From a virus, in the IMG/VR virus record IMGVR_UViG_2795385563_000001: a stretch of DNA of 64,000 bases. One strand, written 5' to 3'. Numbering within the stretch: position 1 is the first letter of the stretch; every line of letters starts with the position of its first letter. Both the position numbers and the translations under genes were made by a program. The notes under the pieces were generated by a model. The model was not told the DNA's origin. It did no database searches and worked only from the letters and a program-made list of their open reading frames with translations. Shown here piece after piece: positions 5,812-62,917 of this stretch.

Positions 5812-5828
5812 TTCTCTATTTTAGAGAA
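5812..5828. promoter_or_regulatory. Dyad operator motif copy 1 (TTCTCTA-TTT-TAGAGAA)
   Basis: 7-bp inverted arms with a 3-bp spacer, directly upstream of the minus-strand start at 5790. Confidence 0.6.
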
Positions 5829-6107
5829 TATATGGCCGGGGTGACAAGCCGCCCAGGAACTCGCGACACGCCGAGAGCCGCTAGTTCATCTGATTAGGTC
5901 CGATCGCGATTTGGAAGTACCTTCCCAGCGGGGCCAGAACTGCTCCCGCGTCTGGACTCTCGACCAGCTCCGCTCCCCGGCGGCGGCTGACGAGGGTCCG
6001 CAAGGACCGAAGAACCTCGTGAAGGTCGCGTTCTGCGTTGCTCTCCCCTTTTCGTGGCGGGCGCGGGCCGGGGACGCACCGCTCGACGGAAAGGGAGGTC
6101 TCCTCTC

Positions 6108-8030
6108 ATGGCATCTGCCACCAATCGCACCGAAATGCTGGCCAAGGCACTCATGCGCGCCCGGCCTGACTTCACGCTGCACAACGCCCGCGTTTTCTCT
6201 CGCGCAGTTATCGACGCCCCTCAGAATGTATTTCGAGACAAGCCACTCCGATTCCTGCCGAACGACTCCGACAATGACAGCCCCGTCCGGTTCCCACTTG
6301 ACGAGTTCGCGCAAGTCGGCGGCCCCCACGGCGCCATCATGGGAATCCCCGGTTACTGGAAGCCGCGCGTCACACGCTTCGCCGAACCACGGGACCACAC
6401 ACCACATGCGCGCCGGGACGCTCTCGCCGGGACGCAGCGACCTTCGAAAGCCGCGGCAGCCTGGTCCCAGGTAGCACTCACCGATGCTCGCCCAGGCGAC
6501 CTGATACTCGACCCGGGTGGGGACGTTCTCGGCGTGGTGGTGGCCGACGGACAGGTGTACGCCGACGGGACCTGGAAGCCGCTTCCTGAAGTAATTCAGA
6601 CGGGCGGTTCTGTGCACCGCTTAGACGTACGCCACGGCGATCCGCTGGCTGAGCTGAAACCGGGCGACGCCCGGGCTTCGATGCTGGCGCAGCTGCTGCC
6701 TTTGTTCGGGTGGGACCCGACCTCAGCCGAGGCCATGTTCCTCGACAAAATCCTCGCAGAGGACTTTCGCATACCGCGAGGAATAAACTCGCTACCCGAG
6801 TTGATCAGATGGCTGGACACTGCTGGTGAGCCCGAAGCGCTCAGGTTGCGCAAAATGTTGCGGTTCTGGATCACTGATCCGAGCCCCCTCGCGCACGCGA
6901 AGACCACCGCCCCGATGCCTTCCGCGACGAACAGCGCCCCCGAGACTAGAAACATGGTCGAGGTGCTGGCAGATGAGGTTTCCGCCAGTTACCGCGGCCG
7001 ACCGCCACGGAAGCTTTGGCCGCCGCAATCGCTGAAGCCACATGTGGATGCGAATTCTGGGGTCCCACTGAATGACCACTGGCCCAATGAAAGTGCCGAT
7101 GTCGCCGCGATCGTCGCAGACGCTGGCGGTGCCATATTCCTCGGCGACTTACTCGATCGGATTAACCGGTCAAGGGCAGGAAGGAGCTTGATGGTCCTCG
7201 GGGCGCTCAGTCGCGGCGAGGTTCAGTTGGACCACGAGCGCAACGTGACCTTGCCTAACCCACAACTGAAATCGTTTGAAACCACGAACAACAACGCCCA
7301 ATTCACCGCTGCCCAGCTGGCGCGCGAGATGGAGCGGCTCCCCGCACCATCACCGCATCCGCTGTCGGCGGTTGCTGACAACGTGCACGAATGTGCGGCG
7401 TTCTCGCTCGGGGTCGGCACTGACGGGGCAGCGGTCACGTACTGCCCCGCTGTGGATGGCCACCTGTTTATTTTCGGCGCCGCTGGCCGGGGTAAATCGA
7501 TGTTGGCGCGAGCACTGGTCCGGGACGCACAGGCCACGAACTGGTGGAAGGCCACGCACGTGAATTCGAGAAAAGATCCAAACGCGGTTCTCGACGGACT
7601 TCGAACCATGCGCGCCGAGATCGAAATCCGCAGCAACAGCCCCAAACTCCACAAGCCCTGGCTCTTGGCGCTCGATGATGCGCTGTGGGATGACTTCGAC
7701 GACGCGCAACGCGACGAGCTGCACACCCTGGTCACGGACCTGTTGTCTACCGGGCGCGAACTGGGTCTCCACCTGGTGCTGATCACCTTGACGCTGGAGA
7801 ACAAGCAGAGGTTCCCGTCCCAGTGGCTCGACCTGTGCTCGACGGTCCTGCTGACCTCCAAGCCAACCCACGACGAAGCGGTAAAGCTCATGCGCGGTGA
7901 CGCGGATCTGCTTCCGATATCGGGCTGGAACGGTTCCGGCAAGATGCTGCTGGTTCGCCGCTCGACCGGTGTATCTCGACCACAACCGCTGTGCGCGTAC
8001 ATGCAAGCCGACAAGTACAAGGGGTACTGA
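6108..8030 (+). CDS. FtsK/SpoIIIE-family P-loop ATPase (possible DNA translocase/coupling protein)
   Basis: Walker A FIFGAAGRGKSMLARAL. Walker B-like hhhhDD (WLLALDDALWDD). The start was moved to the ATG at 6108, which follows AAGGGAGG. 641 aa. Confidence 0.65.
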   Translation: MASATNRTEMLAKALMRARPDFTLHNARVFSRAVIDAPQNVFRDKPLRFLPNDSDNDSPVRFPLDEFAQVGGPHGAIMGIPGYWKPRVTRFAEPRDHTPHARRDALAGTQRPSKAAAAWSQVALTDARPGDLILDPGGDVLGVVVADGQVYADGTWKPLPEVIQTGGSVHRLDVRHGDPLAELKPGDARASMLAQLLPLFGWDPTSAEAMFLDKILAEDFRIPRGINSLPELIRWLDTAGEPEALRLRKMLRFWITDPSPLAHAKTTAPMPSATNSAPETRNMVEVLADEVSASYRGRPPRKLWPPQSLKPHVDANSGVPLNDHWPNESADVAAIVADAGGAIFLGDLLDRINRSRAGRSLMVLGALSRGEVQLDHERNVTLPNPQLKSFETTNNNAQFTAAQLAREMERLPAPSPHPLSAVADNVHECAAFSLGVGTDGAAVTYCPAVDGHLFIFGAAGRGKSMLARALVRDAQATNWWKATHVNSRKDPNAVLDGLRTMRAEIEIRSNSPKLHKPWLLALDDALWDDFDDAQRDELHTLVTDLLSTGRELGLHLVLITLTLENKQRFPSQWLDLCSTVLLTSKPTHDEAVKLMRGDADLLPISGWNGSGKMLLVRRSTGVSRPQPLCAYMQADKYKGY

Positions 8031-8037
8031 CCCACTA

Positions 8038-8073
8038 GCGCCTACAGGCGCCGCATCTGGCGCCTGTAGGCGG
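8038..8073. terminator. Bidirectional hairpin terminator
   Basis: Perfect 14-bp inverted repeat (CGCCTACAGGCGCC / GGCGCCTGTAGGCG) with a 7-nt loop between convergent genes. Confidence 0.6.
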
Positions 8074-8075
8074 AT

Positions 8076-9215: not shown

Positions 9216-9251
9216 CGACGTTCAGCGTGGCGGATCGACGCGAAAATCCGG

Positions 9252-9806
9252 CTACCCGGAGTCAGAACGAAACAACCAGCGCAAGCGCTGCCGCCACGAA
9301 CCGCGCCGCTGCTCTGCCTCCGCCGCGTCCATTGTCGGTCCCAGACGCGGAGGTAGGCGAAAGCGCGAAGCACGACCATCGTCCACGGCCAAAAGCTGAT
9401 CCATCGGAGAGTCGTACCTGCTGATGATCACGAAGTTTGCCGCATCAGTTGTGACCATCTGGTGCACTGCGTCGTTGAATTGACGCAAGAAATATTCGCG
9501 ATCGACCGGGGGTGGGTTGACCGCAAAGGTGCTCGGAATGATTTGCATTAGGCCGTGATTCGCACGCAGCCCATACTGCTCGTCGATGTAATTCGCTCCG
9601 GCGGGTTCCTCCGATAGATCGCGTTCCCCTGCCGCATGGCTTCCAGGACAGCCGTTGCGGGGCAGGCCATGCCAGGGCGCACCACACCGGCACGCCGGTA
9701 CAGCCCCTGGCCGAGTCTCGCCTGCGGCTAGCTGACTATCGATCAAGATGTCAGCTTCCAACGCGTTGATCTCGGCGATCACAGCGTCTTCGGGATTTCC
9801 TTTCAA
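9252..9806 (-). CDS. Hypothetical protein, Cys-rich (CRCG..C.G)
   Basis: 184-aa ORF. Its start is ATGA-coupled to the upstream gene. Confidence 0.35.
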   Translation of the reverse strand: MKGNPEDAVIAEINALEADILIDSQLAAGETRPGAVPACRCGAPWHGLPRNGCPGSHAAGERDLSEEPAGANYIDEQYGLRANHGLMQIIPSTFAVNPPPVDREYFLRQFNDAVHQMVTTDAANFVIISRYDSPMDQLLAVDDGRASRFRLPPRLGPTMDAAEAEQRRGSWRQRLRWLFRSDSG

Positions 9807-44061: not shown

Positions 44062-44628
44062 TCAGGTCAGCTCCTGCGCTCCGGGGTACTCTCCCCTGCC
44101 TTCAACCTCCGGGTGCGGCTCTTTGGCGATCTGTGCTGCTGTGCGCAGACCCACCACCGAGTAGACGATGACAGACAACCCCCACAGGACCAGCATCGCG
44201 AGCCGGATTGGGTCGAGGTACTCGGGGCCAGGCGTTGGGATTATCAAGGCCAGTGCACCGACGGTGGCATACAGCGTCAACGCCAAACCGCGGGAGTTCC
44301 ACAGCCATTGCCGACTCGCGAGGAACGGACCAGCCAGAAGCCCGATACTGAATGCGAGTAAGAAAGCGCACCAGCCCAACACAGCCGAGAAATCATGAAT
44401 CATGTCGTAGTTCGACATACCGAAGCGGTCACACCCCACACGCCGCGGGTCATCGTACTCAAGTGCGCAGAGGTAGCCACTAGTTCGTGTCCGTACCAAC
44501 CAGCCCAGAGCGATGAGCAGTCCGGTCACCACGCTGAATACCATCGACGCGATGGCCAGGTTCGAAGCGTCGGGATCGCCTCCTTCGCCGCTGGATCCGC
44601 TTGGAACAATGATGGGAATCGGAATCAC
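44062..44628 (-). CDS. Polytopic membrane protein
   Basis: About 5 predicted TM helices. Confidence 0.45.
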   Translation of the reverse strand: MIPIPIIVPSGSSGEGGDPDASNLAIASMVFSVVTGLLIALGWLVRTRTSGYLCALEYDDPRRVGCDRFGMSNYDMIHDFSAVLGWCAFLLAFSIGLLAGPFLASRQWLWNSRGLALTLYATVGALALIIPTPGPEYLDPIRLAMLVLWGLSVIVYSVVGLRTAAQIAKEPHPEVEGRGEYPGAQELT

Positions 44629-45029
44629 TTCGACCTGCTTTCATGTGTGCTGTAAACGTATGGGCCAGCGCCAGAATCGACGATGACAGGTATTCCCGAG
44701 GCGTCCGCCCGCCTGACGCAGTCCCAGGTACCGCGAGAATCTGCGTCAGGAAAAGCAAGGCAGATGTCAGCGGCGAGGTCTACCATCTCTTGGTTTCGCA
44801 TGGGGCCCGCGGCTTTACCGTGTACTTGCCACGCCGCTGGATGGGGTTCGACTACGAACCCCATCCCGTCGGCGATCGCCGCGGCGATGATGTCTGCGCC
44901 CCCGTATGGGCATTCACCGTGGACAACGGTCACTTCGTGGGAGTTACGGCCAGCGGAAGCACTGCGCAAGGCGGTATCGATCCTGTCACGTTCTGTCCAG
45001 CGGCGGCTGCCGGTTATCAATATGCGCAT
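44625..45029 (-). CDS. SLOG-superfamily / DUF2493 (DprA-like Rossmann) protein
   Basis: MRILITGSRRW...VVHGECPYGGADIIAA...GPMRNQEM...GIPVIVDSG follows the DUF2493 pattern. Confidence 0.55.
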   Translation of the reverse strand: MRILITGSRRWTERDRIDTALRSASAGRNSHEVTVVHGECPYGGADIIAAAIADGMGFVVEPHPAAWQVHGKAAGPMRNQEMVDLAADICLAFPDADSRGTWDCVRRADASGIPVIVDSGAGPYVYSTHESRSK

Positions 45030-45675: not shown

Positions 45676-46025
45676 TTTTCGCCGCCTCCGATGGCGACCG
45701 GCTGCTTGTGGTCCCAGTCGCAGCTGCCGAAGACGCCGTTGACGTGGCTCCAGTGGGGGTCACCGTCATATGTGTGCTCGAAGCACAGCACCTTTTCCTT
45801 GCCGCCGGGCAGGAGCATCCAGTACGTGCTGAACCCGCCGTCGAGATTCGGCGTTCTAGTCTCGGGTGCAGGTGTCGGCGTGGACGTCGAAGACGTTGCA
45901 GTGGTTGGCTCGAACAGCCCGAGAATTGGACTTTGATCGCTGGCACTGCACGCCGCTGTGGACACGGCCACACCGCTGATGACAAGCGCGGCGGCCGCAA
46001 CGCGGACCATTCCCCGGCGGCTCAT
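45672..46025 (-). CDS. Putative lipoprotein
   Basis: Signal peptide ending ...AVSTAAC. Thr/Pro-rich linker. Confidence 0.45.
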   Translation of the reverse strand: MSRRGMVRVAAAALVISGVAVSTAACSASDQSPILGLFEPTTATSSTSTPTPAPETRTPNLDGGFSTYWMLLPGGKEKVLCFEHTYDGDPHWSHVNGVFGSCDWDHKQPVAIGGGEK

Positions 46026-46316
46026 TGCGCGTCTCCCGATCCGAACAGTGCGCCGAGATTGAGGTCGCGCTGGATGTGACCGCCCGAGATGGTGTCGCCG
46101 ATCAGCAGCGCCCCCGTCACGACAACTGCGATCAACGCGACATGCACCAATTTCCGCAAGATGCCGCTGACAGCGGTGATCACGGCCACGACTACGACCA
46201 CCGATGCGGCCGGCCAGTGATTCAAACCGGGGATCGCAGTCGTCGCAGTCCCTCCGACACCGGTCGTCAATGCCCCAGCCAGCGCGATGCGGCGAAGAGC
46301 TGCGTTTCTGAGCATG
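46022..46316 (-). CDS. Small membrane protein (start moved to ATG 46316)
   Basis: MLRNAALRRIALAGALTTGVGG... The longer call would translate operator motif 4. Confidence 0.4.
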
Positions 46317-46334
46317 CCCACGACTCCATTTCTT

Positions 46335-46351
46335 TTCTCTAAAATGGAGAA
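46335..46351. promoter_or_regulatory. Dyad operator motif copy 4 (TTCTCTA-AAA-TGGAGAA)
   Basis: 19 bp upstream of ATG 46316 on the minus strand. Confidence 0.5.
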
Positions 46352-48564: not shown

Positions 48565-49020
48565 TCAGCCGAACAGAACCAGCGTCACGACCACCGGCGA
48601 AGCCTCCGCAACCTCCCGAATGATCTGCTCGGCCACTGCGGGATCCAGACCGCCGATACCGCCGCCGATAAGTGGTAGCGCGACAGAACCGATCCCCTGC
48701 TTATGCGCCAGGTCTAGCCCCTGAGTCAGAGATGCGCGCAGCCACTGCTCGGTCGCATCGGGACCCGGCTGATTCTGACTCGCACAGTGGATGATGGGGC
48801 GACCCAGCCCGGCGTCACGGCCTTTGTTACGGGTGAACACAGCCGAGCCGGGCGTGATCCGCCCCTGCTGCGCAAGGATGACGTACTGAGTCATCGCGTC
48901 GGGATAGCGGTCCGCCATCACCGAGGCCAGGCCCCCGGTGACGCCCTGGCAATTCACTCCGTGCGCCAATGCCTCAGCTGGATGGGCGAACAAGTCGCCG
49001 GTCTCGACGGTGAAGCTCAT
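48565..49020 (-). CDS. Macro domain protein (ADP-ribose binding/processing)
   Basis: VETGDLFAHPAEALAHGVNCQGVTGGLASVM...GSVALPLIGGGIGGLDP matches the macrodomain fold. Confidence 0.7.
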   Translation of the reverse strand: MSFTVETGDLFAHPAEALAHGVNCQGVTGGLASVMADRYPDAMTQYVILAQQGRITPGSAVFTRNKGRDAGLGRPIIHCASQNQPGPDATEQWLRASLTQGLDLAHKQGIGSVALPLIGGGIGGLDPAVAEQIIREVAEASPVVVTLVLFG

Positions 49021-50086
49021 CGATGCCTCCTCAGACTCGATCCGAATGGGGGACGCGACGGATTGTCCTGTACGTCCCCCAACTGCCAGGGTTCAATGGC
49101 ACGGGCCCGGCTCAGTCTTGCGAGCTTGCCGAGCAGTAGGTCCGACATCTTGTCGCCCTGAACTTCGGCGTCACAGTCACCTTGGGCATCTACGGGAACG
49201 GGATACCTTCTGTCGATGTGGAAGCCCACCATTGGGGTTGGATACTGATCCGACGGCAACTTGCGCAGCATTTTTCCGTACGGTCGGCCAGCAGGTATGT
49301 GAGCGGCGTCGTCAGTCCCTATCAGCGCGCGTGAGTGCTCAGGTCTGTTGACCCTCAGTGAGAACCTGAATCCCAGCAGAGCATCCAGCCCTTCAAGCAT
49401 CGGCTCGGAGAAGTGTTCACCGGCCAGAAGCAGGTGCACTCCGGCCGAGGCCCCGTCTCGTGCGATGTCCATGAGCCGGTTTCGCTTCTCTGGATTCTCC
49501 TGTAGGACCCAGCAGAAATTGTCGATGACCGCTACCAGATCTGGTAGCGGCGGACAATTACCGTCAACAGCGCGTGCACAGCGTTCGCGCCGGTATTCGG
49601 CACTGCTCCGGCAGTGTTTGGACGCGAGAAAGTCCTCTCGACGCCGGATCTCAGCTGTGAGAACAGCCAACGTCCAGTCAATGGTCTCTTCGGGTTTGTC
49701 ATGACCTGACACGTTTGCGACCGTGTGGGGCAACGCCTCGAATCCTCGGAACGTCGCGGTCCCCATCCCGTCAGCCAAGAACAGCGAAAGCCGATCCGGC
49801 CCATACCTGGTCGCGAGCGACAAGACCATCGACCGCAGGAAGTAACTTCTTCCCGCCCCGGTCCGCCCCTGCACGGCGCCGCTGGTTCCGTCACGCGAAA
49901 AGTCCAGGGTGCTCAGCTCTGGGATCAGCGCGTCGCCGACACGCAGATAACCTGTTGGTATCGCGACTGAGTCAGCGTGAGCGTTCCGCGCCCATGCCGC
50001 CGCGGGGTTGTAGGTTTCGATGTCGTCGATACCGAGCACGTCGAAGAAGTCCGGAATCTTGCCGTCACTGTCTGCACCGATGGCGC

Positions 50087-50090
<4 letters not shown>
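49017..50090 (-). CDS. Stand-alone FtsK/SpoIIIE ATPase domain, close paralogue of EccC ATPase domain 1, with Walker A Lys replaced by Arg
   Basis: DFFDVLGIDDIETYN...GAVQGRTGAGRSYFLRSMVLSLATRYGPDRLSLFLADGMGTATF versus EccC DFFEVLEIGDIETHD...GAVAGRTGSGKSYFLRAVVLALIAMYGPDKVALILADFKGGATF. Walker B VAVIDNF. Confidence 0.7.
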
Positions 50091-51524: not shown

Positions 51525-52301
51525 ATGGGCTCGCTGAAATCTCTTCCGGGAAACGACAAGCTGCTGGGTCAGCTCCTGCAGACGCTGCTTGTGCTGGCTG
51601 CTGTGGCGGTCATTGTGGTCTTGATCGTCAACGGCACCTTGTTGGGCAAGGACAGCCGGATATCATCCGTGCTCAGCAAAATCACCGGTCAAGAACAAAG
51701 CGATGAAGTAGCGCCATCGGGCTCAACGACGGCAAGCGGCAGCGGAACTCCCAGTCCTGATCCATCGACGCTGACCGTCGCTGCGCCCGGATCCAAGAAT
51801 GGCTATGCACGCGCACGGTTCGGACAACCATGGACTGACGACGTCGACGTAGAAGGCGGCCATAACGGGTGCGGCACGCGTGATGACATCCTGCAGCGTG
51901 ACCTCACCGGCATAACCCTTTCCGGCTCATGCAAAGTCATGTCCGGAACGCTTGCCGACCCGTACACCGGACAGATCATGTCGTTCGTCTACGGCAAGAA
52001 GACATCAGCTCTCGTCCAGATCGATCACCTAGTGAGCCTGTCAAATTCTTGGGTCTCTGGTGCCTCGACATGGGACTTGTCCGAACTCAAGAAGATCGCG
52101 AACGACCCGTTGAATTTACTTGCCGTCAACGGGTCTTCCAATGAAAGCAAGGGCGAGAAGTCTGCCGATCAGTGGCTTCCGGAGAACACCGCGTTCGACT
52201 GCACCTATGTCAAGCGACAGGTGATGGTCAAGAACAAGTACAGGCTCACCGTGACCGCCGCTGAGAAAGCCACGATGCAGCAATTCTACGGCGCCTGCTG
52301 A
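51525..52301 (+). CDS. Membrane-anchored/secreted HNH-type nuclease-like protein (DUF1524-like)
   Basis: N-terminal TM helix, Ser/Thr/Pro linker, then GHNGCGTRDD...IDHLVSLSNSW...NLLAVNGSSNESKG (His/Asn/Asn HNH-like). Confidence 0.5.
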   Translation: MGSLKSLPGNDKLLGQLLQTLLVLAAVAVIVVLIVNGTLLGKDSRISSVLSKITGQEQSDEVAPSGSTTASGSGTPSPDPSTLTVAAPGSKNGYARARFGQPWTDDVDVEGGHNGCGTRDDILQRDLTGITLSGSCKVMSGTLADPYTGQIMSFVYGKKTSALVQIDHLVSLSNSWVSGASTWDLSELKKIANDPLNLLAVNGSSNESKGEKSADQWLPENTAFDCTYVKRQVMVKNKYRLTVTAAEKATMQQFYGAC

Positions 52302-53181: not shown

Positions 53182-56100
53182 CTATGCAGACTGCCGAAGC
53201 GCCTGCCGCTCTTGCTGCAATTTCCTGTCCACCGCGTCGACATCGATCCGCGCGGTCTGCACCATTGCATAGTCGTCCGCATCTACGATGATTCGGCCCT
53301 GTCCAGGACGCCAGCGCATCGGCTTGAGGTGGTAAGCCTGGCCGATTGGATCGCCGGATGACGGTGGGCTAGCCAGCTGCAGGATGGGAGCCATCATGTT
53401 CTCCCGCAGCGCCATCAGGAACTCGGCCGACTTCACCTTGCTGGCGAACCCGCTGTTGTCCGAGACGATGAAGTGCACGCCGAGGTCTGTTCCGGAAGCG
53501 AGCAATTCACTAATCGTCACCCCGCCATACCGCACCTCGTCGAACACCGACTTCGACGAGTAGCCCTTGGCCAGGTTGGAGAAGTTGTCGACGAACACGT
53601 AAACCTCGGGTCCAGTGAAGAAGGTCCGGGACTTGAGCTCATCGGCAGTGGCGTCGTCGGTGGGGCGACGAGATCCCATTAGCTTGACCAACATCTCCGC
53701 CGTTTCGGCGATATCTTCGGCACTGGTGACATATCCCGGTGGACGCATCCGCTCCCGCACCATCGCACCGTCGCGCTCCACCTCTTGGAACTTGGCGGGC
53801 CTGACGAATCCGCGGGCATACAGGCGATCTCGCTCCCCCAGGTGCTGGCGAAGCGGGTCGATCACGATGATGATGGCGTCCTTCGGGGTGAACTGACGCA
53901 TCACCGACTCCATGAAGCTGCGCATCAGATTGCTCTTGCCGGCGCCCTTCTCGCTGTACACAAGCAGGTTTTGTGAGAAGTTCGGCATCGGCGCCAGGTC
54001 CAAAGTGTCCATGCGGACACCCAGCGGGATGATCGTGTGCATGGGATGCCGGTGAGGATCGCTCAGTGGCGCGAACGTCGACCACATGTGCTCGTAGTCG
54101 ATGACCGGATCGGCGGGCAGAACCTTGGGAACTCTCTGATCGGCTAGCTCGGCGTCAAGATAGGTGCACAGTTCTCGGATCTCTTCGCCGTAATCGTGAA
54201 TCTTGAAGTCCTTCATACCTCCCACGTACCCGTCCTCTTCGATCTCTCGGAAGATGGGCACCGCGGTGCGCGCCTGCAACATCGTGAACGGATCGAATGA
54301 ACGGCCAGGCTGATCCACCGGGATACGCTCGCTCAAGGTGAAGCGCACCTCGGACGAGACTTTCGCCCCACCGTAGTCCGTAGAAGGGAGCTGTACACCG
54401 CCGTTGACCTCCGCGGTGTAGTGAGTCACGTTGCCCGCGTTTCCTGATCCGCCTGAGTCAGCGGTGTAGACCAGGTGCACGCCCACCGCGGCGCCCTTGT
54501 CGAGGATTGGGCGCAACAGTTGCGCACGGTCGGCGCGCTCGTCCTTCTCGCCCAGGAATCCTCCGATGCCGTCAATAGCCACGATCACGTACCCGTAGGG
54601 GTCGCCTTCGACGGGGACAGCGGACTCACCAGACTTGGACGCCAGGTACGCGTCCACCGACGAAGCTTGGCGATCCACCATTTCGCGACGACGTAGGTCG
54701 ATCAGGCGGGAGGCCTCACCGAGAATGCGCGCTGTGGTCTCGTCGTCCTCCGGTCGCGCATAGGCCGCAACGTTCGGGCTGTCCTTGACTTCTCCGAGCT
54801 TGCCGGTGCCGTAGTCGACCAGCATGAACGCAAGCCGCGCCGGTCCGTGCTGGAGGCATCCGCAGATGACCAGCGTCTGTAGCAGGGTCGTGCGCCCCGA
54901 CTTGCCAGCGCCCGCGATCACCTGGTGTGGCAGGTTTCCGCCGAAATCCACGAACCAGGGCAACCGCGTGTGCTTTTCGGGTGCATCGAGGTCACCGACC
55001 CTGATCCTGATCCCGCGCTCTTCACGAGTCAGGTCCAACGTGGGCAATGACAGCGGCTCACGTAGCGATGGTTTCCACAGATCCAGGGTGCGCATTTTTG
55101 ACAGACGCGAGGCCTTTTCCAAGAGAACATCGGCCATCTTCTCGCCGAGCTCCTCCTCGGTGACCTCAACGTTATCTTCCTTTACCTCGGGTTTGAATTC
55201 CCCGGTGGCGAAGAACGTGAACGGAACTACCGTCTCCGCGACTGGTCCGGATCCGTCCGCATGCACACGAGATCGCTCGGTCACCGTGCGCCTGACGTAC
55301 GGCGCCTCGTGATGGAACGCCGCTACTTCAACAGGCTTGGCGTCAGTGGTGAACTTGCGCAAGATCTTTCCCTTGAGCCCGCCCTTCTTGCCCACCATCG
55401 TCGCCGCGTCGTCTGTGCCCAGCATCGCGACGGAATAGCTCGTGCTGTTGACCGCCAACGAGTAGCGGAAGGTCAAGTGCTCGAACAGATCACCGATGAC
55501 ATCCTTGTTGATGAACTGGCTGCACATGACCAGGTGCATACCCAGCGAGCGGCCCACGCGCCCGACGCGGATCAGCATCTCCAGATAGCCCGGGCGGCCT
55601 TTGAGGAATTCGCCGAACTCGTCGATGATCACGATCAGGTCAGGAAGCGGAGGCCAGTTCGGATCGTTCGGGTGCTTCTTCTGCTGCTCCCGGTAGTCGA
55701 AGATGTCCTTGCAGCCCTTTTCGGTGGTGATGAACTCCTCCCGGCGGTCCACCTCTCCGTTGATGACCGCGCCTAGGCGATCGACGAGTTCCATCGTGTT
55801 CTCGAGGTTGGAGATAGACGCCACGACGTGCGGCAGCTTGTCCATCCCCAGGAACGTCGCGCCGCCCTTGAAGTCAGCAAGAATGAGCGCGACCTTGTCC
55901 GGTCCATACATCGCGATGAGCGCCAGGACTACCGCGCGCAGGAAGTAGGACTTACCGGAACCGGTTCGGCCCGCCACCGCTCCGTGCGGACCGTTTCCGT
56001 CTCGGTTCTCTTCGTAGAAGTTCAGGTATGTCAGCTCGGGGGTGAGCTCATCGCCCTTGCGGTAGTAGCCAAACGGCACCTTGATCTCGTCGGTGTAGGC

Positions 56101-57465
56101 GTTGCGCTTCCACACCTCGATCAGGTCGTGCGTCTCGATGTCGCCGATCTCGAGCACTTCGAAGAAGTCCGGGATGTGGTCGGGACGATCGTCGACCACT
56201 TCGCCGCCGACGCCGTAGTTGCGCGGCCGCCATTTGTACATGGTCTGGGCGAAGACTGCGGCCTCGGCGATCGTCGCTGAGTCGGCAGCCGCAGCGTCGT
56301 AATTATCGACAGTCGAGACGCGGCCGTCCTTGAGAAGGATGCGACTCTTCATCTCGACGGGGTCGGTAACCAGATCTTGGCCGCAGCGCACCACGAACCA
56401 GGTCATGCCCTTGACACCGCCCGCGATGTTCGCCGGCCAGGACACCATCGCATCGGGGGTATCGATGATCAGAATAAGATGCGGGGGCCGGTTGTCGCTG
56501 TCCTCGTTGCGCATGCGCTCGATCTGCGCGGCGTGCTTGACCGCGAATTCATCGATGCTGCGCCATGTCAGAAGCCGTGCGCCCAGCCCCTTTTCAACAC
56601 GGGTCACGTCCTCGGCATGTGGCAGCCACTTCACCCATTCCCAAGTCTCGGGGTCATCGGTCACCACGCCGACGTTCAGATCGCTGGGCCGGTGGTTGAA
56701 CGCCAGCGACATCAGCATGGCCCGTACGAGCCCCAGGCGCCCCTGCTCATCTCCGCGCATCGCGTAGGCGGGAAACTCGTCGAGGCGTACGTCGAGCGGT
56801 AGGTTGGCGACTACCGACAGCGTGTCCATCGCGCGCCCGTAACGCACCATAGTCGCCGGTTCCTGCATCTCCGGCACCACATCTGGCGCCTGTATGAGTT
56901 TCGGAAACAGCGGCGCCACACCGATTCCGACACGAGCCCGCAGATATGGGTTCGAGGTCAGATTTTTGACGTCGGGGTCCGACTCCTGGTCCGCCTGAAC
57001 TACGCGACCGATTTCGGGGTTGGAATCGGCCTGCCACATTTCGTGAGAGCCGATCAGGGAAAGAAGATCAGCCGGGTGCGGGAAGCATTGGGTTCGCAGG
57101 TCATGCATGGCCTGCCCCTGCTCGTAGATTTCAAAACGCTGCTCACGCAGTTCCAGGTCGTATTCCTCTATGTCCTGGTCGATGTCGCCACCGCTGTTGC
57201 CCTGGCTGCGCATCTGCGCGATGTACATCAGCGGCATCATCAGCATGATCGGCATCGTGGTGAGCATCGTTGTGATGGCGCGTTGTCCGGTGACCAGCGA
57301 CATGACAACCATGCCGACCATGAGGCCCACCATCATCAATGGCATGAAGCGGAGCCAGATCGGGCGCTTGTCCGGCGCCGGCAGGCCTAGCGGCTCTTTG
57401 AGTTGTACACCGGTGGGCGACAACTGAACTGATTCGCGCGGGGGAACCCGGAAAACAGTGAACAT
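53182..57465 (-). CDS. eccC: EccC-like type VII secretion FtsK/SpoIIIE ATPase (TM segments, DUF domain, three P-loop domains)
   Basis: 1427 aa. N-terminal RFMPLMMVGLMVGMVVMSL...MLMMPLMYIAQM...HPADLLSLIGSHEMW...VKWLPHAEDV is collinear with M. tuberculosis EccCa1. P-loops GRTGSGKSY, GAGKSGRTT and GAGKSNLM. ATG preceded by AAGGAAGGA. Confidence 0.85.
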   Translation of the reverse strand: MFTVFRVPPRESVQLSPTGVQLKEPLGLPAPDKRPIWLRFMPLMMVGLMVGMVVMSLVTGQRAITTMLTTMPIMLMMPLMYIAQMRSQGNSGGDIDQDIEEYDLELREQRFEIYEQGQAMHDLRTQCFPHPADLLSLIGSHEMWQADSNPEIGRVVQADQESDPDVKNLTSNPYLRARVGIGVAPLFPKLIQAPDVVPEMQEPATMVRYGRAMDTLSVVANLPLDVRLDEFPAYAMRGDEQGRLGLVRAMLMSLAFNHRPSDLNVGVVTDDPETWEWVKWLPHAEDVTRVEKGLGARLLTWRSIDEFAVKHAAQIERMRNEDSDNRPPHLILIIDTPDAMVSWPANIAGGVKGMTWFVVRCGQDLVTDPVEMKSRILLKDGRVSTVDNYDAAAADSATIAEAAVFAQTMYKWRPRNYGVGGEVVDDRPDHIPDFFEVLEIGDIETHDLIEVWKRNAYTDEIKVPFGYYRKGDELTPELTYLNFYEENRDGNGPHGAVAGRTGSGKSYFLRAVVLALIAMYGPDKVALILADFKGGATFLGMDKLPHVVASISNLENTMELVDRLGAVINGEVDRREEFITTEKGCKDIFDYREQQKKHPNDPNWPPLPDLIVIIDEFGEFLKGRPGYLEMLIRVGRVGRSLGMHLVMCSQFINKDVIGDLFEHLTFRYSLAVNSTSYSVAMLGTDDAATMVGKKGGLKGKILRKFTTDAKPVEVAAFHHEAPYVRRTVTERSRVHADGSGPVAETVVPFTFFATGEFKPEVKEDNVEVTEEELGEKMADVLLEKASRLSKMRTLDLWKPSLREPLSLPTLDLTREERGIRIRVGDLDAPEKHTRLPWFVDFGGNLPHQVIAGAGKSGRTTLLQTLVICGCLQHGPARLAFMLVDYGTGKLGEVKDSPNVAAYARPEDDETTARILGEASRLIDLRRREMVDRQASSVDAYLASKSGESAVPVEGDPYGYVIVAIDGIGGFLGEKDERADRAQLLRPILDKGAAVGVHLVYTADSGGSGNAGNVTHYTAEVNGGVQLPSTDYGGAKVSSEVRFTLSERIPVDQPGRSFDPFTMLQARTAVPIFREIEEDGYVGGMKDFKIHDYGEEIRELCTYLDAELADQRVPKVLPADPVIDYEHMWSTFAPLSDPHRHPMHTIIPLGVRMDTLDLAPMPNFSQNLLVYSEKGAGKSNLMRSFMESVMRQFTPKDAIIIVIDPLRQHLGERDRLYARGFVRPAKFQEVERDGAMVRERMRPPGYVTSAEDIAETAEMLVKLMGSRRPTDDATADELKSRTFFTGPEVYVFVDNFSNLAKGYSSKSVFDEVRYGGVTISELLASGTDLGVHFIVSDNSGFASKVKSAEFLMALRENMMAPILQLASPPSSGDPIGQAYHLKPMRWRPGQGRIIVDADDYAMVQTARIDVDAVDRKLQQERQALRQSA

Positions 57466-57485
57466 TGCAGTTCCTTCCTTGGTAG

Positions 57486-59366
57486 TCAGCGACCGACGGT
57501 CGAGGCGTCGTTGGTGGCCTGCGCCCGATCTGCGGTGTCCGAGCTTGAGCTAGCCGCAGGGTCCGGGGTAGTGGCATCAGGCGCAGGCGCCTCTCCCTCT
57601 TCCTCGGGGACCGGCGCGGGCGGAGGTTGTCCTTGCGTCGTTGGCGGGTTCGGTACCTGCGATGCGGGGTTGATGGTTCCCTGCATGACTTGTGCGTTCT
57701 TGATCGACAACGTCGCTCCAGGTGCGTACAACTTGGCGACCGCCGCGGGGATGGGTGTCGGCGAAATCGAGTCGAAACCAAGGGCTTTGACAGTTGGGTC
57801 GTAGGACACCGCGCCGTTGCGGGCAATCACCACGTCAATCGGAAACCGGGTTCCATTGGGATCGATCCACAGCAGTTGCTCGGCGGCCACCGAATCTGTG
57901 CTGTCACCGGTCGTTCGGGCATACCATCCGTACCCGGGGCGGGTGATCGAATCAGTTGCCTGGTCGGTAGACCCGTTGTTGGGCAGTAGATGTACGGCGG
58001 CAACGCGTCCGGACTCAGTGACCGGCATCCGAGAATTAGTGAAGATGCGAGTGTGCGCTGTGAGCTCACCAGCGGACTTGGTCCAGCTCCAGCACAGCGC
58101 GGGCTCACTGACCAGCGTCGGCACCTGCGTGGGAAACCGTGAGTCGTCGACGATCCCCACCCGAGGCATCGCCTGCACCGAGGCAGGGTCGTCGACGAGC
58201 TTCTGCGCCGCCCCGGTGTTGATCATCATCTGCGCCAGTACGGGACTGACCTGTTGCACTCCTCCAGAACCAACCAAATAGAAGGCCCGTGAGCCCGATG
58301 CCGTAGCCACCGTGAGCACGTCGCCGATGGCGGAGCCGTTCACCGTTGGGCTGGGCTGCCCTTGGTTAACGAGCCTGGGCGCGGTGAGCACGGGCGACGG
58401 CGCAATCGTTGCGAGCAGCGAAGGTGAGACAGTCACTGCGGTCTCGATAAGCGACGGTGTCAGTCCGAGAGCGGCCTGCGCGGCATAGTCCCCACGCCCA
58501 ACTTCAGCTCGTGTGTCGCGATACAGCAGCCACAACCTGGTCGGATCGCTGGCAGGTTTGACCAGCACCGCTCGGTTGCTTCCCAGATCGGTTCCGCCAT
58601 CAAGCATGTCGTCTCCGGCAATCACAGCGGTGGTGATGTCGCCGGTCTTAAGAAGCGACAGCGGCACCGCTGTGTCGCGCCAGTCGCAGACGGTCCACAC
58701 AGCTGACTCGTCAGTGCGCGGGGACAACAGATTGGGCGCACTGGGAATACCCATCAGGGGCCCGGTGGGTAGTGAACGCAGCGCCGTGTCGGTGGCGACC
58801 TTGGCTTCTTCTGGCGTGCCGACAATCAGACGAGCCGAGGCCAGGTTGGTCACCGGGTGCAGGCGGCCGTTGAACTGAACGAATATGCCGCCGGAGCGGG
58901 TTGTCATGATCGCGGCGACGCCCGAATCGGGCTTCGGGTTGATCAACGAGACAACGAATGCCGCTACGAGAACAAGTACGCCGCCTACGAGGCTGATCGA
59001 CAAGGATCCACGCAGACGCGTAAGGGGCGATCCAACGCCACGCACATCCTGACGGGACAATGCCTCGTCGATGCGATTGAGTTCGCGCTTATACCCCTTG
59101 ATCTGGCGAGTGGTGGTCAAAAACCACGGCACTGCCCCATCGGCGCGGTTGGGCTCACGTTTGCGCCCCTCGGACTGTTGGTCGTTGCTCAAATTCCCAG
59201 ACACCGCAACTCCTTGCTCGCCAAGCCGACCGGCCGGCTGGCCGTGTTCGATGCGTGGGGAGAGTGGCAAAATCTCGCGGATACACAGCTCTGGGGCGCG
59301 AGGAGACGTCAGCGCCAACCGCGCCGATCTGCGAACGTGGTGTATTCTCCGTTTTAGAGAACTCAT
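57486..59366 (-). CDS. eccB: EccB-like type VII secretion membrane component
   Basis: FLTTTRQIKGYKRELNRIDEA ... single TM ... GRLHPVTNLASARLIVGTPEEAKVATDTALRSLPTGPLMGIPSAP...AVWTVCDW ... PALCWSW are collinear with EccB1. The true start is probably GTG near 59132; the called N-terminal 78 aa are doubtful. Ends 20 nt before the eccC start. Confidence 0.8.
   Translation of the reverse strand: MSSLKRRIHHVRRSARLALTSPRAPELCIREILPLSPRIEHGQPAGRLGEQGVAVSGNLSNDQQSEGRKREPNRADGAVPWFLTTTRQIKGYKRELNRIDEALSRQDVRGVGSPLTRLRGSLSISLVGGVLVLVAAFVVSLINPKPDSGVAAIMTTRSGGIFVQFNGRLHPVTNLASARLIVGTPEEAKVATDTALRSLPTGPLMGIPSAPNLLSPRTDESAVWTVCDWRDTAVPLSLLKTGDITTAVIAGDDMLDGGTDLGSNRAVLVKPASDPTRLWLLYRDTRAEVGRGDYAAQAALGLTPSLIETAVTVSPSLLATIAPSPVLTAPRLVNQGQPSPTVNGSAIGDVLTVATASGSRAFYLVGSGGVQQVSPVLAQMMINTGAAQKLVDDPASVQAMPRVGIVDDSRFPTQVPTLVSEPALCWSWTKSAGELTAHTRIFTNSRMPVTESGRVAAVHLLPNNGSTDQATDSITRPGYGWYARTTGDSTDSVAAEQLLWIDPNGTRFPIDVVIARNGAVSYDPTVKALGFDSISPTPIPAAVAKLYAPGATLSIKNAQVMQGTINPASQVPNPPTTQGQPPPAPVPEEEGEAPAPDATTPDPAASSSSDTADRAQATNDASTVGR
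59345..59361. promoter_or_regulatory. Dyad operator motif copy 5 (TTCTCCG-TTT-TAGAGAA)
   Basis: 30 bp upstream of XRE gene ATG 59392, in the divergent region toward eccB. Confidence 0.55.
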
Positions 59367-59391
59367 GCTTGCACATCAGGAGGCATACCCC

Positions 59392-59691
59392 ATGCGCACC
59401 GATCCCGCCCAGGCCAAGTCGCCTGGCGGCCTCTTCGTGCTCACCGATACAGCCATCGGCACGGCCATCCGCATCCGCCGTGGCGGTTTGCAGCAGGGAG
59501 AAGTCGCCAAACGTGCAGGCATCAACCTCAGCGTGTTCTCGCGCATCGAACGCGGGGAGCGGCCATGCCGCGTCTCTGAAATGGTGAGTATCGCCAAAGC
59601 ACTCAACACACCTGAAGACGAGATGCTCAAGTTGATCAGGGATCAAGTAGCCGCAGAGGGTTCCGCCGAGAAAACTCAGGGCAAGCGATGA
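59392..59691 (+). CDS. XRE-family HTH regulator (candidate repressor of the dyad motif)
   Basis: QQGEVAKRAGINLSVFSRIERGERPCRVSEMVSIAKAL. Paralogue of 62940..63215. Confidence 0.6.
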   Translation: MRTDPAQAKSPGGLFVLTDTAIGTAIRIRRGGLQQGEVAKRAGINLSVFSRIERGERPCRVSEMVSIAKALNTPEDEMLKLIRDQVAAEGSAEKTQGKR

Positions 59692-60293: not shown

Positions 60294-60361
60294 CACCCTG
60301 CACCACTGGTGAGGACTCACGAGCTCCGCCGAGTTGTCACAGCTGTCAGATGCTTCTGATA

Positions 60362-60378
60362 TTCTCTAAAATAGAGAA
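60362..60378. promoter_or_regulatory. Dyad operator motif copy 6 (TTCTCTA-AAA-TAGAGAA, perfect)
   Basis: 12 bp upstream of ATG 60390. Confidence 0.6.
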
Positions 60379-60389
60379 TACGAGGTGTT

Positions 60390-60746
60390 ATGAGCATGAC
60401 AATGCGCGAACAGACAAGCGCCGTGACTGCGGCCGTCCAACCTGCGTTCAAATGCGGATTCGACGACGGTGCGCGGTCCGCTGCGTGCACCAACCCGGCT
60501 CCCGACGATGCCAGTTATTGCAGCCAGCACGACCCTGCGGTGGTCACTATCGAACGCAGCTACCTGGTCCGAGTAGTGCAGACCTACACCGGCAGGCTCC
60601 CCGAAAGACGGGAGGGACGTAGTGACGATGTTGACCAGTTCATCTGCGACAACTTCCTTTTGGTCAGCGACGAAACCGAGACCGTCGACGAGGACGAACT
60701 TCAAGTGATCCTGCGACACCCCGATGGATCAGCCGAAGCGCTCTGA
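60390..60746 (+). CDS. Hypothetical protein
   Basis: 118 aa. Cys-containing N-terminal half. Confidence 0.4.
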   Translation: MSMTMREQTSAVTAAVQPAFKCGFDDGARSAACTNPAPDDASYCSQHDPAVVTIERSYLVRVVQTYTGRLPERREGRSDDVDQFICDNFLLVSDETETVDEDELQVILRHPDGSAEAL

Positions 60747-60791
60747 AATCTCCGTTGACGCCAGATCAACAACCCGAGAGGAACCCGGCAC

Positions 60792-61049: not shown

Positions 61050-61554
61050 GCCCACAACGCTGCCCCTGTTCAGTGGTTATCCGCTGGATATGTTTGCGCC
61101 CATTGACACGGAGCGCCCCGACCTTCAGCCACCGGACACTCCCCTAGTGCGAATTCTGCGACGCGGTCGCTCCGTTTCCGAGGGCGCGGCGGTCACGTGG
61201 CTACACGAGGCACGGGACGAAGTGAGCCGGCACAGTGAGGCGGACTTTTTCGAACGATCAACTCAGGAGTGGGCGTTCCCGGCAGATGTCGATGGTTGGT
61301 TCTACAGCTACTGGCACTACCCGGCACACAGCTGCGACCTCGGCTGCGACGAGGAGCCCTTCGTCGCTGTACTCGCCGTGCGCTGGGTGGATGCCGACCA
61401 GATTCCAGAGAGCGAACGCCACGTCGCGGGGCGATCGCTAAACCCGGACGGAACGCCGCATCAGCGGAGCCCCCAAGCGACTCGGCGCCGAGGCTTTGCC
61501 CAAAACGCAACCAACCAACCCGCAGTTTCTGCGCATCCGCAATTTCTGCGGTAG
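61042..61554 (+). CDS. Hypothetical protein (start moved to ATG 61042)
   Basis: MPEPTTLPLFSGY... ATGcctGA junction with the upstream gene. Confidence 0.35.
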   Translation: MPEPTTLPLFSGYPLDMFAPIDTERPDLQPPDTPLVRILRRGRSVSEGAAVTWLHEARDEVSRHSEADFFERSTQEWAFPADVDGWFYSYWHYPAHSCDLGCDEEPFVAVLAVRWVDADQIPESERHVAGRSLNPDGTPHQRSPQATRRRGFAQNATNQPAVSAHPQFLR

Positions 61555-61563
61555 CATGAGCCC

Positions 61564-61959
61564 ATGGATGACCGCTATGACCAGATCCGAGAGGAGCTGC
61601 GCCACGCCGAAAGCGCAACCGCAGCAGAATCCCTGCCGCATCTGCGCACTGCTGTCGACTTGGCGAGTCAGCTGATCGACGAGCATATGGCCGAGGCTGT
61701 CATCGGAGGGCAACTCAGCATCCGAGCTGCGGGCGCGCAGGTTGGACTGACCGAGAACTCGGTGGGGCCGCGACTGGCGAGAACTCCACAACTGAATCCG
61801 TATGCACGCGGCGACGGACGGGTCACCGCGTCGGAGATCAATCGGGCCCGTTACGACCGCGAGGCCGGAATTCCCGCACCGGCACTACCGGAGTCGCAAC
61901 CCGAACCGCTGCGATTCAAGCCACGCCGCAACAACACTCAACCCAAGGAGACGAAATGA
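61564..61959 (+). CDS. Hypothetical protein, possible HTH
   Basis: 131 aa. Confidence 0.35.
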   Translation: MDDRYDQIREELRHAESATAAESLPHLRTAVDLASQLIDEHMAEAVIGGQLSIRAAGAQVGLTENSVGPRLARTPQLNPYARGDGRVTASEINRARYDREAGIPAPALPESQPEPLRFKPRRNNTQPKETK

Positions 61960-62594
61960 CCAACCCCCATCTGACGTGGATTCTGTTCCTGCTCGACCGC
62001 TCCGGATCAATGGGAGCGATCCAAGGGGCCACCCAGGAGGGCTTCAACACCTTCATCGCCGAGCAGCGCAAGGCGCCCGGCCGGTGTGCAGTGACCCTCG
62101 CGCAGTTCGATGACGAGTACGAGGTCGTCTACTCGCAGAAGCCACTCGACAAGGTTCCCCCGCTGAAGCTGTTGCCACGCAACAGCACAGCACTACTCGA
62201 CTCAATGGCCAAGCTGATTGTGGAGTCCGGGCTGCAGCTCGCGGAGCTGCCCGAGGACGAGCGTCCGGGCACCGTGATCGTGGCGATCATGACCGACGGA
62301 CTCGAGAACGCAAGTCGCGAGTGGACGCACCCCATGATCAAGGAGCTGGTTCAGCAGCAGACCGAACAGTACGGCTGGCAGTTCCTGTACATGGGAGCCA
62401 ACCAGGACGCGATCGAGGAGGGCGCCAAGCTAGGCGTGTCTGGTGACTACTCACTCGATTTCGCCGGGGCCAACGTGGGGCAGGCGATGACTGTCACCTC
62501 GCAAAATGTCGCGTCATACCGATCGGCGCGGTCTACTGATCTGACCGCGTCGATGCCGACGTACACCGCTGAGCAGCGCCGCTCGTCGAAGTAG
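61956..62594 (+). CDS. von Willebrand factor type A (vWA) domain protein
   Basis: MIDAS motif LLDRSGSM. Further T and D positions are consistent. Confidence 0.65.
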   Translation: MTNPHLTWILFLLDRSGSMGAIQGATQEGFNTFIAEQRKAPGRCAVTLAQFDDEYEVVYSQKPLDKVPPLKLLPRNSTALLDSMAKLIVESGLQLAELPEDERPGTVIVAIMTDGLENASREWTHPMIKELVQQQTEQYGWQFLYMGANQDAIEEGAKLGVSGDYSLDFAGANVGQAMTVTSQNVASYRSARSTDLTASMPTYTAEQRRSSK

Positions 62595-62900
62595 GTCTGA
62601 CAGCGGTGGTTGGCGGCTAGACCCCTCGCCGTTGACCACCGCTGGATCGCCGCCCGTAGACCCTCGCTACTGCTGGTGGGATCGTTGCGCCAGTCCTGCC
62701 TGATCACCTTGCGATGAGGTCGCGAGGAACCACTCGACCAGCATCTTCGGTGGCGTTGTCGGCGTTGCAGCTCCGGTCGAACAAGGTGGTGTGACGGGTG
62801 CCGCCAGCCGCGACAATCCAGTCTCGAATCGGGGGCTCGGCGCTCCAGCTTTGTCACGTCCCTGGCGTGGCTCTCTTGGCTAGCGCGCCACCAGGGGATA

Positions 62901-62917
62901 TTCTCCACATTAGAGAA
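62901..62917. promoter_or_regulatory. Dyad operator motif copy 7 (TTCTCCA-CAT-TAGAGAA)
   Basis: 23 bp upstream of ATG 62940. Confidence 0.55.

Follow-up and report, generated by a model that had tools for sequence, protein, structure and literature searches.

A recurrent dyad at predicted promoters of a large mycobacterial integrated element and its candidate XRE repressor

Does one short DNA site, repeated in front of scattered genes, coordinate transcription across a large integrated element, and which protein would read it? The question is raised by a 64,000-nt stretch from IMG/VR virus record IMGVR_UViG_2795385563_000001, which was analysed whole and is called the window hereafter. An original prediction, made from the letters of the window alone, described seven copies of a 17-bp dyad as the operator of an element-wide repressor regulon and proposed two XRE-family helix-turn-helix (HTH) proteins, g72 and g79, as its readers. 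We find that the dyad recurs in related elements of mycobacteria and Tsukamurella, that its two arms change symmetrically and that it is inherited together with one type of XRE protein. The explanation we favour, to which we give a probability of roughly 0.7, is that the dyad is the operator of an element-encoded dimeric XRE repressor and forms part of the core promoters of eight or more transcription units.

A dyad that recurs in one family of elements

The dyad occurs in the window far more often than expected by chance. The pattern TTCTCYNNNNTAGAGAA matches seven times (Table 1) and never in 100 dinucleotide-preserving shuffles of the window. All seven sites of the original prediction exist, one of them beginning at 10530 rather than at 10529, and allowing two mismatches adds just one more, a degenerate and conserved site at 63330. 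Three of the eight are perfect 7+3+7 palindromes, the several perfect copies that had been described, and the other five are imperfect. The outermost base pair is often altered symmetrically in Tsukamurella (CTCTCTA...TAGAGAG), so the conserved core comes down to 15 bp, TCTCTA-NNN-TAGAGA. Searched as TCTCT-N5-AGAGA, this core is present four times exactly and eight times within one mismatch, against expectations of 0.03 and 0.96, and shuffling the window within 100-nt blocks yielded at most three core copies.

Recurrence and conservation carry the signal, and placement between genes adds little. All eight dyads are intergenic on a gene map built from a self-trained codon model, as had been predicted, but this is weak evidence because AT-rich 17-mers lie mostly between genes anyway: 79% of those in this 62% GC window are intergenic, which gives eight intergenic sites a probability of ~0.15. 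The predicted distance of 12–30 bp to start codons describes six sites well (11–31 nt from dyad end to start codon) and fails at 15491, which lies farther from both of its neighbours. For g14 the start codon is placed by a PHROG match that begins at residue 1. Of three open reading frames said to read through the motif with the peptide FSKIEN, two do so, and the one at 46393 gives FSILEK. We rejected repeat ends or those of miniature inverted-repeat transposable elements as an origin of the dyads; only 15–19 bp are common to the sites and their flanks are unrelated. The SPFH/Band 7 gene beside dyad 3 is called as two genes, g22 and g23, where relatives encode a single protein of 311–318 aa; the split reflects either one gene or a frameshift in the window copy.

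Dyad cores are conserved beyond their surroundings in Mycobacteroides abscessus. Homologues of g72 at 73–81% identity led us to syntenic variants of the element in this species, and every one of them retains all of the three right-hand dyads. Across lineages whose XRE proteins are 76–81% identical, 59 of 60 dyad-core columns are invariant, compared with 88 of 228 columns in the 57 nt upstream. At 59345 a 27-nt invariant block adjoins a 12-nt indel (alignment A1); at 60362 the dyad and a −35-like TGTCAGA are invariant and the flanks ~30% conserved (alignment A2); at 62901 the dyad stands at the end of a ~75-nt conserved block (alignment A3). The degenerate site at 63330 (TCTCTATAACCGAGAA) is a 16-nt block, invariant in relatives L001, L007 and L015, with a 70-nt insertion, or else a deletion, in its upstream flank.

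The left-hand sites are conserved in a set of relatives found through g14. Homologues of g14 at 61–88% identity identify loci in M. abscessus, Mycobacterium sp. D16Q14 and M. conceptionense, and these carry sites of the 5812, 10530 and 15491 types at orthologous positions, except in M. conceptionense, where only the g14 (10530-type) site was seen. The 10530-type dyad is kept 14 nt upstream of g14 orthologues down to 61% identity, M. conceptionense included. The 5812-type site is retained upstream of the g10 orthologue, and the 15491-type dyad is likewise retained, in L146, L148 and L150. Lineage-specific extra dyads stand in front of RNA ligase genes at these loci.

In a second genus, the dyad is restricted to the element. 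Record NZ_LR134455.1, labelled Tsukamurella tyrosinosolvens 'plasmid 13', carries housekeeping genes (uvrA, rbpA, lnt, icd, katG and cobN) in its first 120.8 kb; from an integrase at 120870 (integrase plus Xis) onward it holds an element of at least 143 kb that is syntenic with the window and encodes orthologues of 40 of the 79 window proteins. The record is chromosomal DNA mislabelled as a plasmid. Its element contains 18 core dyads, 14 of them exact, where 1.2 and 0.03 are expected, and the adjacent 120.8 kb of host DNA contains none, where 0.7 is expected. The dyad recurs element-wide, as predicted, and shows no comparable density in this host DNA. Dyads before units common to both elements are paired in Table 1.

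The perfect 17-mer points to further relatives in high-GC Actinomycetes. We scanned one genome per species, and among the matches listed most are singletons in low-GC DNA, a chance background. At least eight loci lie in high-GC Actinomycetes, seven of them in Mycobacteriales, against ~7e-6 expected per such genome: M. canariasense (2), M. austroafricanum (2), Mycobacterium sp. D16Q14, M. frederiksbergense, Nocardia sp. and an uncultured Actinomycetes metagenome-assembled genome. Several of these matches fall in demonstrably related elements, and two of the loci each carry a tandem pair of g79-type genes.

Phage, plasmid and viral-contig collections held almost nothing of the system. Megablast of the window gave no DNA match among 50,697 phage records and, among plasmids, matched only the Tsukamurella record. 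Viral contigs searched with g14 yielded no relatives; the 17-mer matched them 58 times, always in low-GC DNA and at chance level. Chance matches aside, neither the regulator nor the dyad turned up in these collections, except in the mislabelled record and as one weak prophage HTH match. Gene 7 of prophiGD51-2, the only phage match to g79, was set aside; the dyad was not found at its own promoter.

The dyad within predicted promoters

At the level of consensus, the dyad overlaps core promoter sequence. We oriented 35 non-redundant dyads by their downstream gene. Positions 1–4 (TCTC) and 12–15 (GAGA) are invariant; position 5 is Y, 6 is R, 10 is T and 11 is A, and positions 7–9 are A or T except for a C at 7 in four sites. 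Upstream, T is found at −2 in 71% of sites and A at −1 in 83%; of the mirror positions, T17 reaches 60% and A18 only 34%. What emerges is a symmetric element of 19 bp, A-N-TCTCTA-NNN-TAGAGA-N-T, with one further, asymmetric T upstream that makes up the hexamer TANTCT. Actinobacterial −10 elements have the consensus TANNNT. At 13 sites the TA flank, with its −10-like TANTCT, faces the downstream gene; at three it faces the other way, and all three exceptions carry TAAAAT at the dyad centre in the direction of the gene. The half-site arms TCTCTA and TAGAGA lie 9 bp apart centre to centre, a spacing that fits an HTH dimer.

Promoter scans agree with this consensus. A sigma70-type scan of 16.7 kb called seven promoters, five of which overlap dyads, on four dyads (Table 1); at 15491 the TATTCT flank faces g24. 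Of 24 occurrences of the −35-like hexamer TTGTCA, 6 fall within 80 nt of a dyad, an enrichment over the ~0.5 expected. The −10-like flank, the sigma70-type matches and the symmetric substitutions together support the predicted dyad-symmetric operator overlapping promoters, and the footprints, the Tsukamurella counts and the co-occurrence with a conserved XRE recognition helix strengthen it. The leaderless starts that had also been proposed do not fit: Shine–Dalgarno-like sequences stand between most dyads and start codons, so the transcripts are predicted to have short leaders. Intrinsic terminators were rejected as an explanation of the dyad, no terminator-like site coinciding with one in the three regions scanned.

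Table 1. Dyads, predicted promoters, XRE genes and other features of the window and its relatives; positions refer to the window unless a relative is named
Feature	Position	Strand	Sequence or form	Context	Tsukamurella dyad (common unit)
Dyad 1	5812..5828		perfect palindrome TTCTCTATTTTAGAGAA	22 nt upstream of g10 (5608–5790, minus); 280 nt from g11 (plus)	131378 (g11)
Promoter at dyad 1	5847–5818	minus	TTGTCA-18-TAAAAT	sigma70-type scan	
Dyad 2	10530..10546		perfect palindrome	13–14 nt upstream of g14 start codon (9803–10516, minus)	
SPFH/Band 7 gene (g22 + g23)	14499–15433	minus			
Dyad 3	15491..15507		TTCTCTGTTTTAGAGAA	divergent region: SPFH gene g23/g22 (minus) 58 nt; g24 (plus) 263 nt	150064 (SPFH)
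Promoter at dyad 3		minus	TTGACT-16-TACGAT	dyad forms the promoter spacer	
g24	15770–17767	plus		EccC-like and EccA-like fusion	
g36	27101–29896	minus		family A DNA polymerase	
Gene-free gap	29896–30934		~1 kb	between divergent polymerase gene and g37; similar gap in Tsukamurella, 183932–184842	
Inverted repeat in gap	arms ~30080–30207 and 30370–30497		large, imperfect; arms 81–89% complementary		
g40	33359–34129	plus		intein-like match	
SLOG protein	44625–45029			defence-like cargo	
Dyad 4	46335..46351		TTCTCTAAAATGGAGAA	14 nt upstream of g61 (46022–46321, minus), first gene of a co-directional string including SLOG protein g57	216895 (g61 to SLOG)
Promoter at dyad 4	46376–46348	minus	TTGTCA-17-TATTCT	sigma70-type scan	
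Macro-domain protein	48565–49020			defence-like cargo	
g66	49017–50090			lone EccCa-like ATPase	
GmrSD-like HNH nuclease	51525–52301			defence-like cargo	
EccB and divergent EccC	53182–59318				
Dyad 5	59345..59361		TTCTCCGTTTTAGAGAA	30 nt upstream of XRE gene g72; region divergent from eccB	234850 (XRE divergent from eccB; 24 nt upstream of Tsukamurella XRE)
g72	59392..59691	plus	99 aa	paralogous XRE-family HTH protein; second candidate binder or second-tier regulator	
Dyad 6	60362..60378		perfect palindrome, TA on both flanks	11 nt upstream of g74 (60390–60746, plus), first gene of the g74–g78 string	236805 (g74–g78; g76)
Promoter at dyad 6	60343–60372		CTGTCA-18-TAAAAT	sigma70-type scan	
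Second promoter at dyad 6		minus	TTGTCA-16-TATTCT	sigma70-type scan	
10-mer	62852..62861	plus	TGTCACGTCC	40 nt upstream of dyad 7	
Dyad 7	62901..62917		TTCTCCACATTAGAGAA	22 nt upstream of XRE gene g79; presumed autoregulatory operator	
g79	62940..63215	plus	91 aa	XRE-family HTH protein; best candidate dyad-binding repressor	
Dyad 8	63330..63346		degenerate, ATCTCTATAACCGAGAA	~145 nt upstream of conserved open reading frame starting at 63490 (plus)	
Dyad variant, L157			tatTCTCTGCTTTGGAGA	before g79-type gene	
Dyad variant, L156			TCTCCGCAATAGAGA	before g79-type gene in eccB-divergent slot	
Dyad variant, L154			tagTCTCCACATTGGAGA	before g79-type gene; symmetric arm change (TCTCC...GGAGA)	
Dyad variant, Tsukamurella			TTCTCCACTTTGGGGAG	before g79-type gene	
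E2-CBASS/PycTM pair	L156, 11620–12775			defence-like cargo	

A candidate repressor and competing explanations

The most likely dyad-binding repressor, as a candidate, is the g79-type XRE protein. Dyads precede both XRE genes, consistent with the autoregulation that had been predicted, and both proteins, ordinary XRE/Cro-C1 members by family, match Pfam HTH_31 (g72 at 39.8 bits and g79 at 29.7 bits, cut-off 27), g72 also matching HTH_3 (34.8 bits, cut-off 23). An AlphaFold model of g79 has six helices in a compact all-helical HTH fold (predicted local distance difference test score, pLDDT, 86.8), and Foldseek aligns it with the dimeric, palindrome-binding XRE regulators C.BclI, ClgR, DdrO, P22 C2, Stl and SinR at TM-scores of 0.6–0.85. 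The protein occurs residue for residue on M. abscessus assemblies such as GCA_900130485.1. Its family comprises 36 clusters at 51–100% identity from Mycobacteroides, Mycolicibacterium, Mycobacterium and environmental contigs. Across these homologue clusters the helix-3 segment G[IL]DWRVLSRIERGERPCRV hardly varies, even where overall identity falls to 48%.

The dyad and the g79-type protein are inherited together. Among the DNA compared, the signature SRIERG[ED]RP occurs only in loci of this element family. A dyad variant stands 22–70 nt before the start of each g79-type gene with readable upstream DNA, as inspected in the window and its M. abscessus variants, L134 (second tandem copy), the Tsukamurella orthologue, L154/L155, L156 and L157 (Table 1). 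Co-occurrence of the XRE recognition helix with dyads favours an XRE reader, as in the original prediction, but the two proteins do not appear equal. The g72 family is the narrower, confined to Mycobacteroides in a word-indexed search; g72-type proteins were found on more than 90 contigs. Its recognition helix is NLSVFSRIERGERP in the window and DERVFSRIERGERP in the orthologue that fills the same slot in Tsukamurella, the second helix position being S, K or R. We therefore favour g79 over g72 as the conserved repressor. The g72 protein, whose gene is predicted to share a transcript with the NT5C-like gene g73, may be another reader of this core, either in a second tier or in competition with g79.

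The ~75-nt invariant block that ends in dyad 7 in M. abscessus holds a second conserved word, the 10-mer TGTCACGTCC. It recurs 40–45 nt upstream of dyads at g79-type genes in L156 and L157 and is inverted in L074. The block around it has hairpin potential (CCCTGGCGTGG...CCACCAGGGG), and the 10-mer may be a site for another regulator.

We propose that a g79-type dimer would silence the element by occupying the dyads. With half-site centres 9 bp apart, its two units would enter successive major grooves on one face of the DNA. The −10 hexamer would be either TANTCT, which shares bases with the upstream arm, or TAAAAT/TATTTT in the middle of the dyad, and transcription is predicted to start inside or just after the dyad. 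The dyads would then be promoter–operator cassettes, in which, judged from the consensus, a bound dimer would occupy roughly −12 to +5 and keep RNA polymerase out. An imperfect copy would allow the g79-type protein to repress its own promoter, and perfect or near-perfect ones would bring g72, g74–g78, the string from g61 to the SLOG gene, the SPFH/ATPase pair, g14, g10 and the open reading frame at 63490 under the same repression. The repressor would thereby keep the element silent.

Several observations weigh against this explanation. In all relatives (L146, L148, L150 and L152) the TA flank of the 10530-type site is on the side nearer the gene, so that TATTCT points away from g14, and in two of these relatives the centre reads TAAAAC, a poor −10 hexamer; a promoter for g14 is not evident. 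This site may instead be a roadblock, or may promote antisense transcription into g15–g22 upstream. The ATPase genes lie 263–280 nt from dyads 15491 and 5812. Repression is read from the position of the dyads, and g72 and g79, which share xxVxSRIERGERP, are indistinguishable by sequence alone. No inducer or anti-repressor was identified among the proteins scanned, which are part of the 79. As a separate observation, a gene-proximal TA flank recurs at RNA ligase genes in Tsukamurella and M. conceptionense.

A different binder is unlikely. Dyads are AT-rich islands in 62% GC DNA, where a host AT-binding nucleoid protein such as Lsr2 could settle; the element also encodes a WhiA homologue, g42, and other HTH proteins, and we assign site to protein from sequence. 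The XRE protein could, in another version, act at the dyad as an activator. A general AT-binder would hardly select for invariant TCTC and GAGA, however, and host DNA of 120.8 kb has none of the sites, which travel with the SRIERG-type XRE protein. WhiA recognises GACAC, a sequence absent from the dyad. As for activation, a site lying across −10 hexamer and start point has the geometry expected of repression instead.

Promoter sequence by itself is an improbable source of the dyad. The motif could be only a conserved promoter, read by RNA polymerase with a host or special sigma factor, the dyad being a by-product of a −10 hexamer and the initial transcribed sequence; near-identical promoters are frequent in mobile elements, and the TANNNT hexamers in the motif, the TA flank toward genes and the −35-like TTGTCA at 16–18 nt would all follow. 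A promoter has no need of two-fold symmetry, yet both arms are invariant and T17 mirrors A(−1). Substitutions are symmetric too, at the outer pair in Tsukamurella and at an inner arm position in L154, which indicates that dyad symmetry is itself under selection. The dyad is moreover kept whether the −10 hexamer lies at its edge, at its centre or outside it, as at 15491, where it is the spacer of a minus-strand promoter, and its degenerate copies specifically precede regulator genes. A hairpin in the 5′ leader RNA, acting in processing, stability or translation control, is very improbable: perfect palindromes 11–30 nt before start codons do fold at −10 to −12 kcal/mol (z about −3), but imperfect sites fold no better than shuffled sequence (z −0.4 and −0.7), the centre occurs in both orientations relative to the gene, arm sequence and not just pairing is conserved, starts predicted inside the dyad would leave the upstream arm untranscribed, and there is no Rfam match.

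An operator for a dimeric XRE repressor, our preferred explanation, does not make the element a lysogeny-like switch as originally proposed. No phage structural genes, no CI/Cro-type divergent pair with tandem operators and no S24 or M78 partner were found, the latter among the proteins scanned. We rejected a phage CI/Cro switch, as g72 and g79 are co-oriented, 3.2 kb apart and preceded by a single dyad each, with no virion genes found; a repressor–protease module of the ImmR/ImmA or DdrO/IrrE type seems unlikely, its architecture not having been found among those proteins. The XRE genes neighbour g73 and genes annotated without function, none with an M78 match; g51 has a HELAHH motif and no Pfam hit. 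The proposed direct control of eccB–eccC is not supported either: the −10-like flank of dyad 59345 faces the XRE gene, and the eccB start lies ~141–154 nt off, or 264 nt in Tsukamurella.

Fold relatives share the predicted role of g79 and differ in operator layout. ImmR of ICEBs1, Stl of Staphylococcus aureus pathogenicity islands and CI/C2 of lambdoid phages have the XRE/Cro-C1 fold in common with it, Stl and P22 C2 being among its structural matches. They are autoregulated and keep the genes of their elements silent, with operators that overlap promoters, comparable to the role predicted here. Their operators, however, are found at one or two regulatory regions, in contrast to single dyads at no fewer than eight dispersed promoters, and the ImmA/M78 protease, S24 domain and divergent cro-like partner have no counterpart among the proteins scanned. 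The best structural matches to the g79 model are C.BclI, C.AhdI, C.Esp1396I and ClgR (TM-scores 0.7–0.85), at only 21–27% sequence identity. These are small XRE dimers whose binding sites are inverted repeats at promoters, as predicted for g79. C-proteins serve a single restriction-modification operon through tandem operators as activator and repressor, unlike the dispersed dyads here. ClgR is chromosomal, activates clp genes and uses another, GC-containing operator.

In actinobacterial mobile genomes, one short repressor site dispersed in many copies over short intergenic gaps is known from the mycobacteriophage stoperators of L5 gp71 and the conserved inverted repeats of the Streptomyces phage phiC31 repressor. 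Each Cluster A stoperator is an asymmetric 13-bp site aligned with the direction of transcription, to which a monomeric immunity repressor binds; many serve as roadblocks away from promoters. The dyad is instead two-fold symmetric, embedded in predicted promoters, found in both orientations relative to genes and unrelated in sequence, and we rejected a stoperator system on its symmetry and its two orientations. The motif is likewise unlike start-associated sequences and the SOS box, as had been predicted.

The closest functional parallel is KorA of the IncP-1 plasmids RP4/RK2, a 101-aa dimeric HTH repressor whose 12-bp symmetric OA operator lies at seven promoters including its own (PMC2665229). 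Its operators fall into perfect, high-affinity and imperfect, low-affinity classes (PMC2665229). The likeness consists in a small element-encoded HTH protein with dispersed symmetric operators, its presumed own included, and the window has three perfect and five imperfect dyads, with imperfect ones at the regulator genes. The differences are plain: there is no detected sequence relationship (g72/g79 are Pfam HTH_31/HTH_3), the operator is 15–19 bp rather than 12 bp and of another sequence, no KorB-like partner or second operator was identified here, and KorA belongs to a Gram-negative plasmid rather than a mycobacterial integrated element. The mechanism we propose is a known kind of switch, and the operator–regulator pair appears to be new.

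The element and its regulon

The window is part of a large integrated element and is not recognisably a prophage. It starts with a tyrosine integrase and an Xis-like HTH_17 protein and encodes a family A DNA polymerase, a helicase, the WhiA homologue, an SPFH protein, a methyltransferase, SLT transglycosylase and Macro-domain proteins and, by orthology to a Tsukamurella gene annotated by the Prokaryotic Genome Annotation Pipeline (PGAP), an S1-peptidase homologue. It carries several type VII-like ATPases: EccB with a divergent EccC, g24, in which an EccC-like FtsK ATPase domain is fused to an EccA-like CbbX-type AAA domain, and g66, which stands alone beside a Macro-domain protein. PHROG scans of the window returned no phage structural protein, the sole "terminase" match lying in an intein-like region, and the PGAP annotation of the 143-kb Tsukamurella element lists neither a capsid nor a terminase nor a portal gene. 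It is on the lack of a phage structural protein and of a DNA match to phage records that we do not call the window a prophage. Neither the window nor the Tsukamurella element has recognisable relaxase or VirB4/VirD4 genes, and our search found no tRNA genes.

The element family and its regulation appear undescribed. In the literature we found no description of the 17-mer, of these elements or of their control, and ICEMyc226 differs from this element in having a type IV secretion system and a DDE recombinase. The M. abscessus element measures at least 64 kb and the Tsukamurella one at least 143 kb. Tentatively, and with more doubt than confidence, we suggest that these are undescribed very large integrative elements of Mycobacteriales with the dyad and XRE protein as master switch, in which derepression would trigger excision, replication and type VII/FtsK-like transfer, making them a new kind of conjugative element.

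Other parts of the element vary among relatives or carry unusual insertions. The polymerase g36 has 931 aa compared with 641 aa in Tsukamurella, owing to a ~290-aa insertion with intein-like ends (CLPENQ... and ...YLTGNS). The only part of the terminase PHROG that g40 matches is intein-like, which suggests a free-standing or degenerate Hint-domain protein. The gene-free gap beside the polymerase gene holds a large imperfect inverted repeat and could be a replication origin or a small inserted element. Defence-like cargo, including a GmrSD-like HNH nuclease, SLOG and Macro-domain proteins in the window and an E2-CBASS/PycTM pair in L156, varies among relatives.

The dyad map indicates which promoters of a widespread M. 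abscessus element are co-controlled. If our explanation is true, it singles out one or two small proteins that should, once removed, turn the element on, a handle for asking whether an element rich in EccB/EccC and ATPases excises, replicates or transfers. The dyad together with the g79 helix signature is a sequence marker for related elements across Mycobacteriales, and has already exposed the mislabelled Tsukamurella record. Mycobacterial genetics could gain an orthogonal and tightly repressible expression module from the compact promoter–operator cassette with its repressor. If these are conjugative elements of a new kind, their whole programme would be readable from the dyad map.

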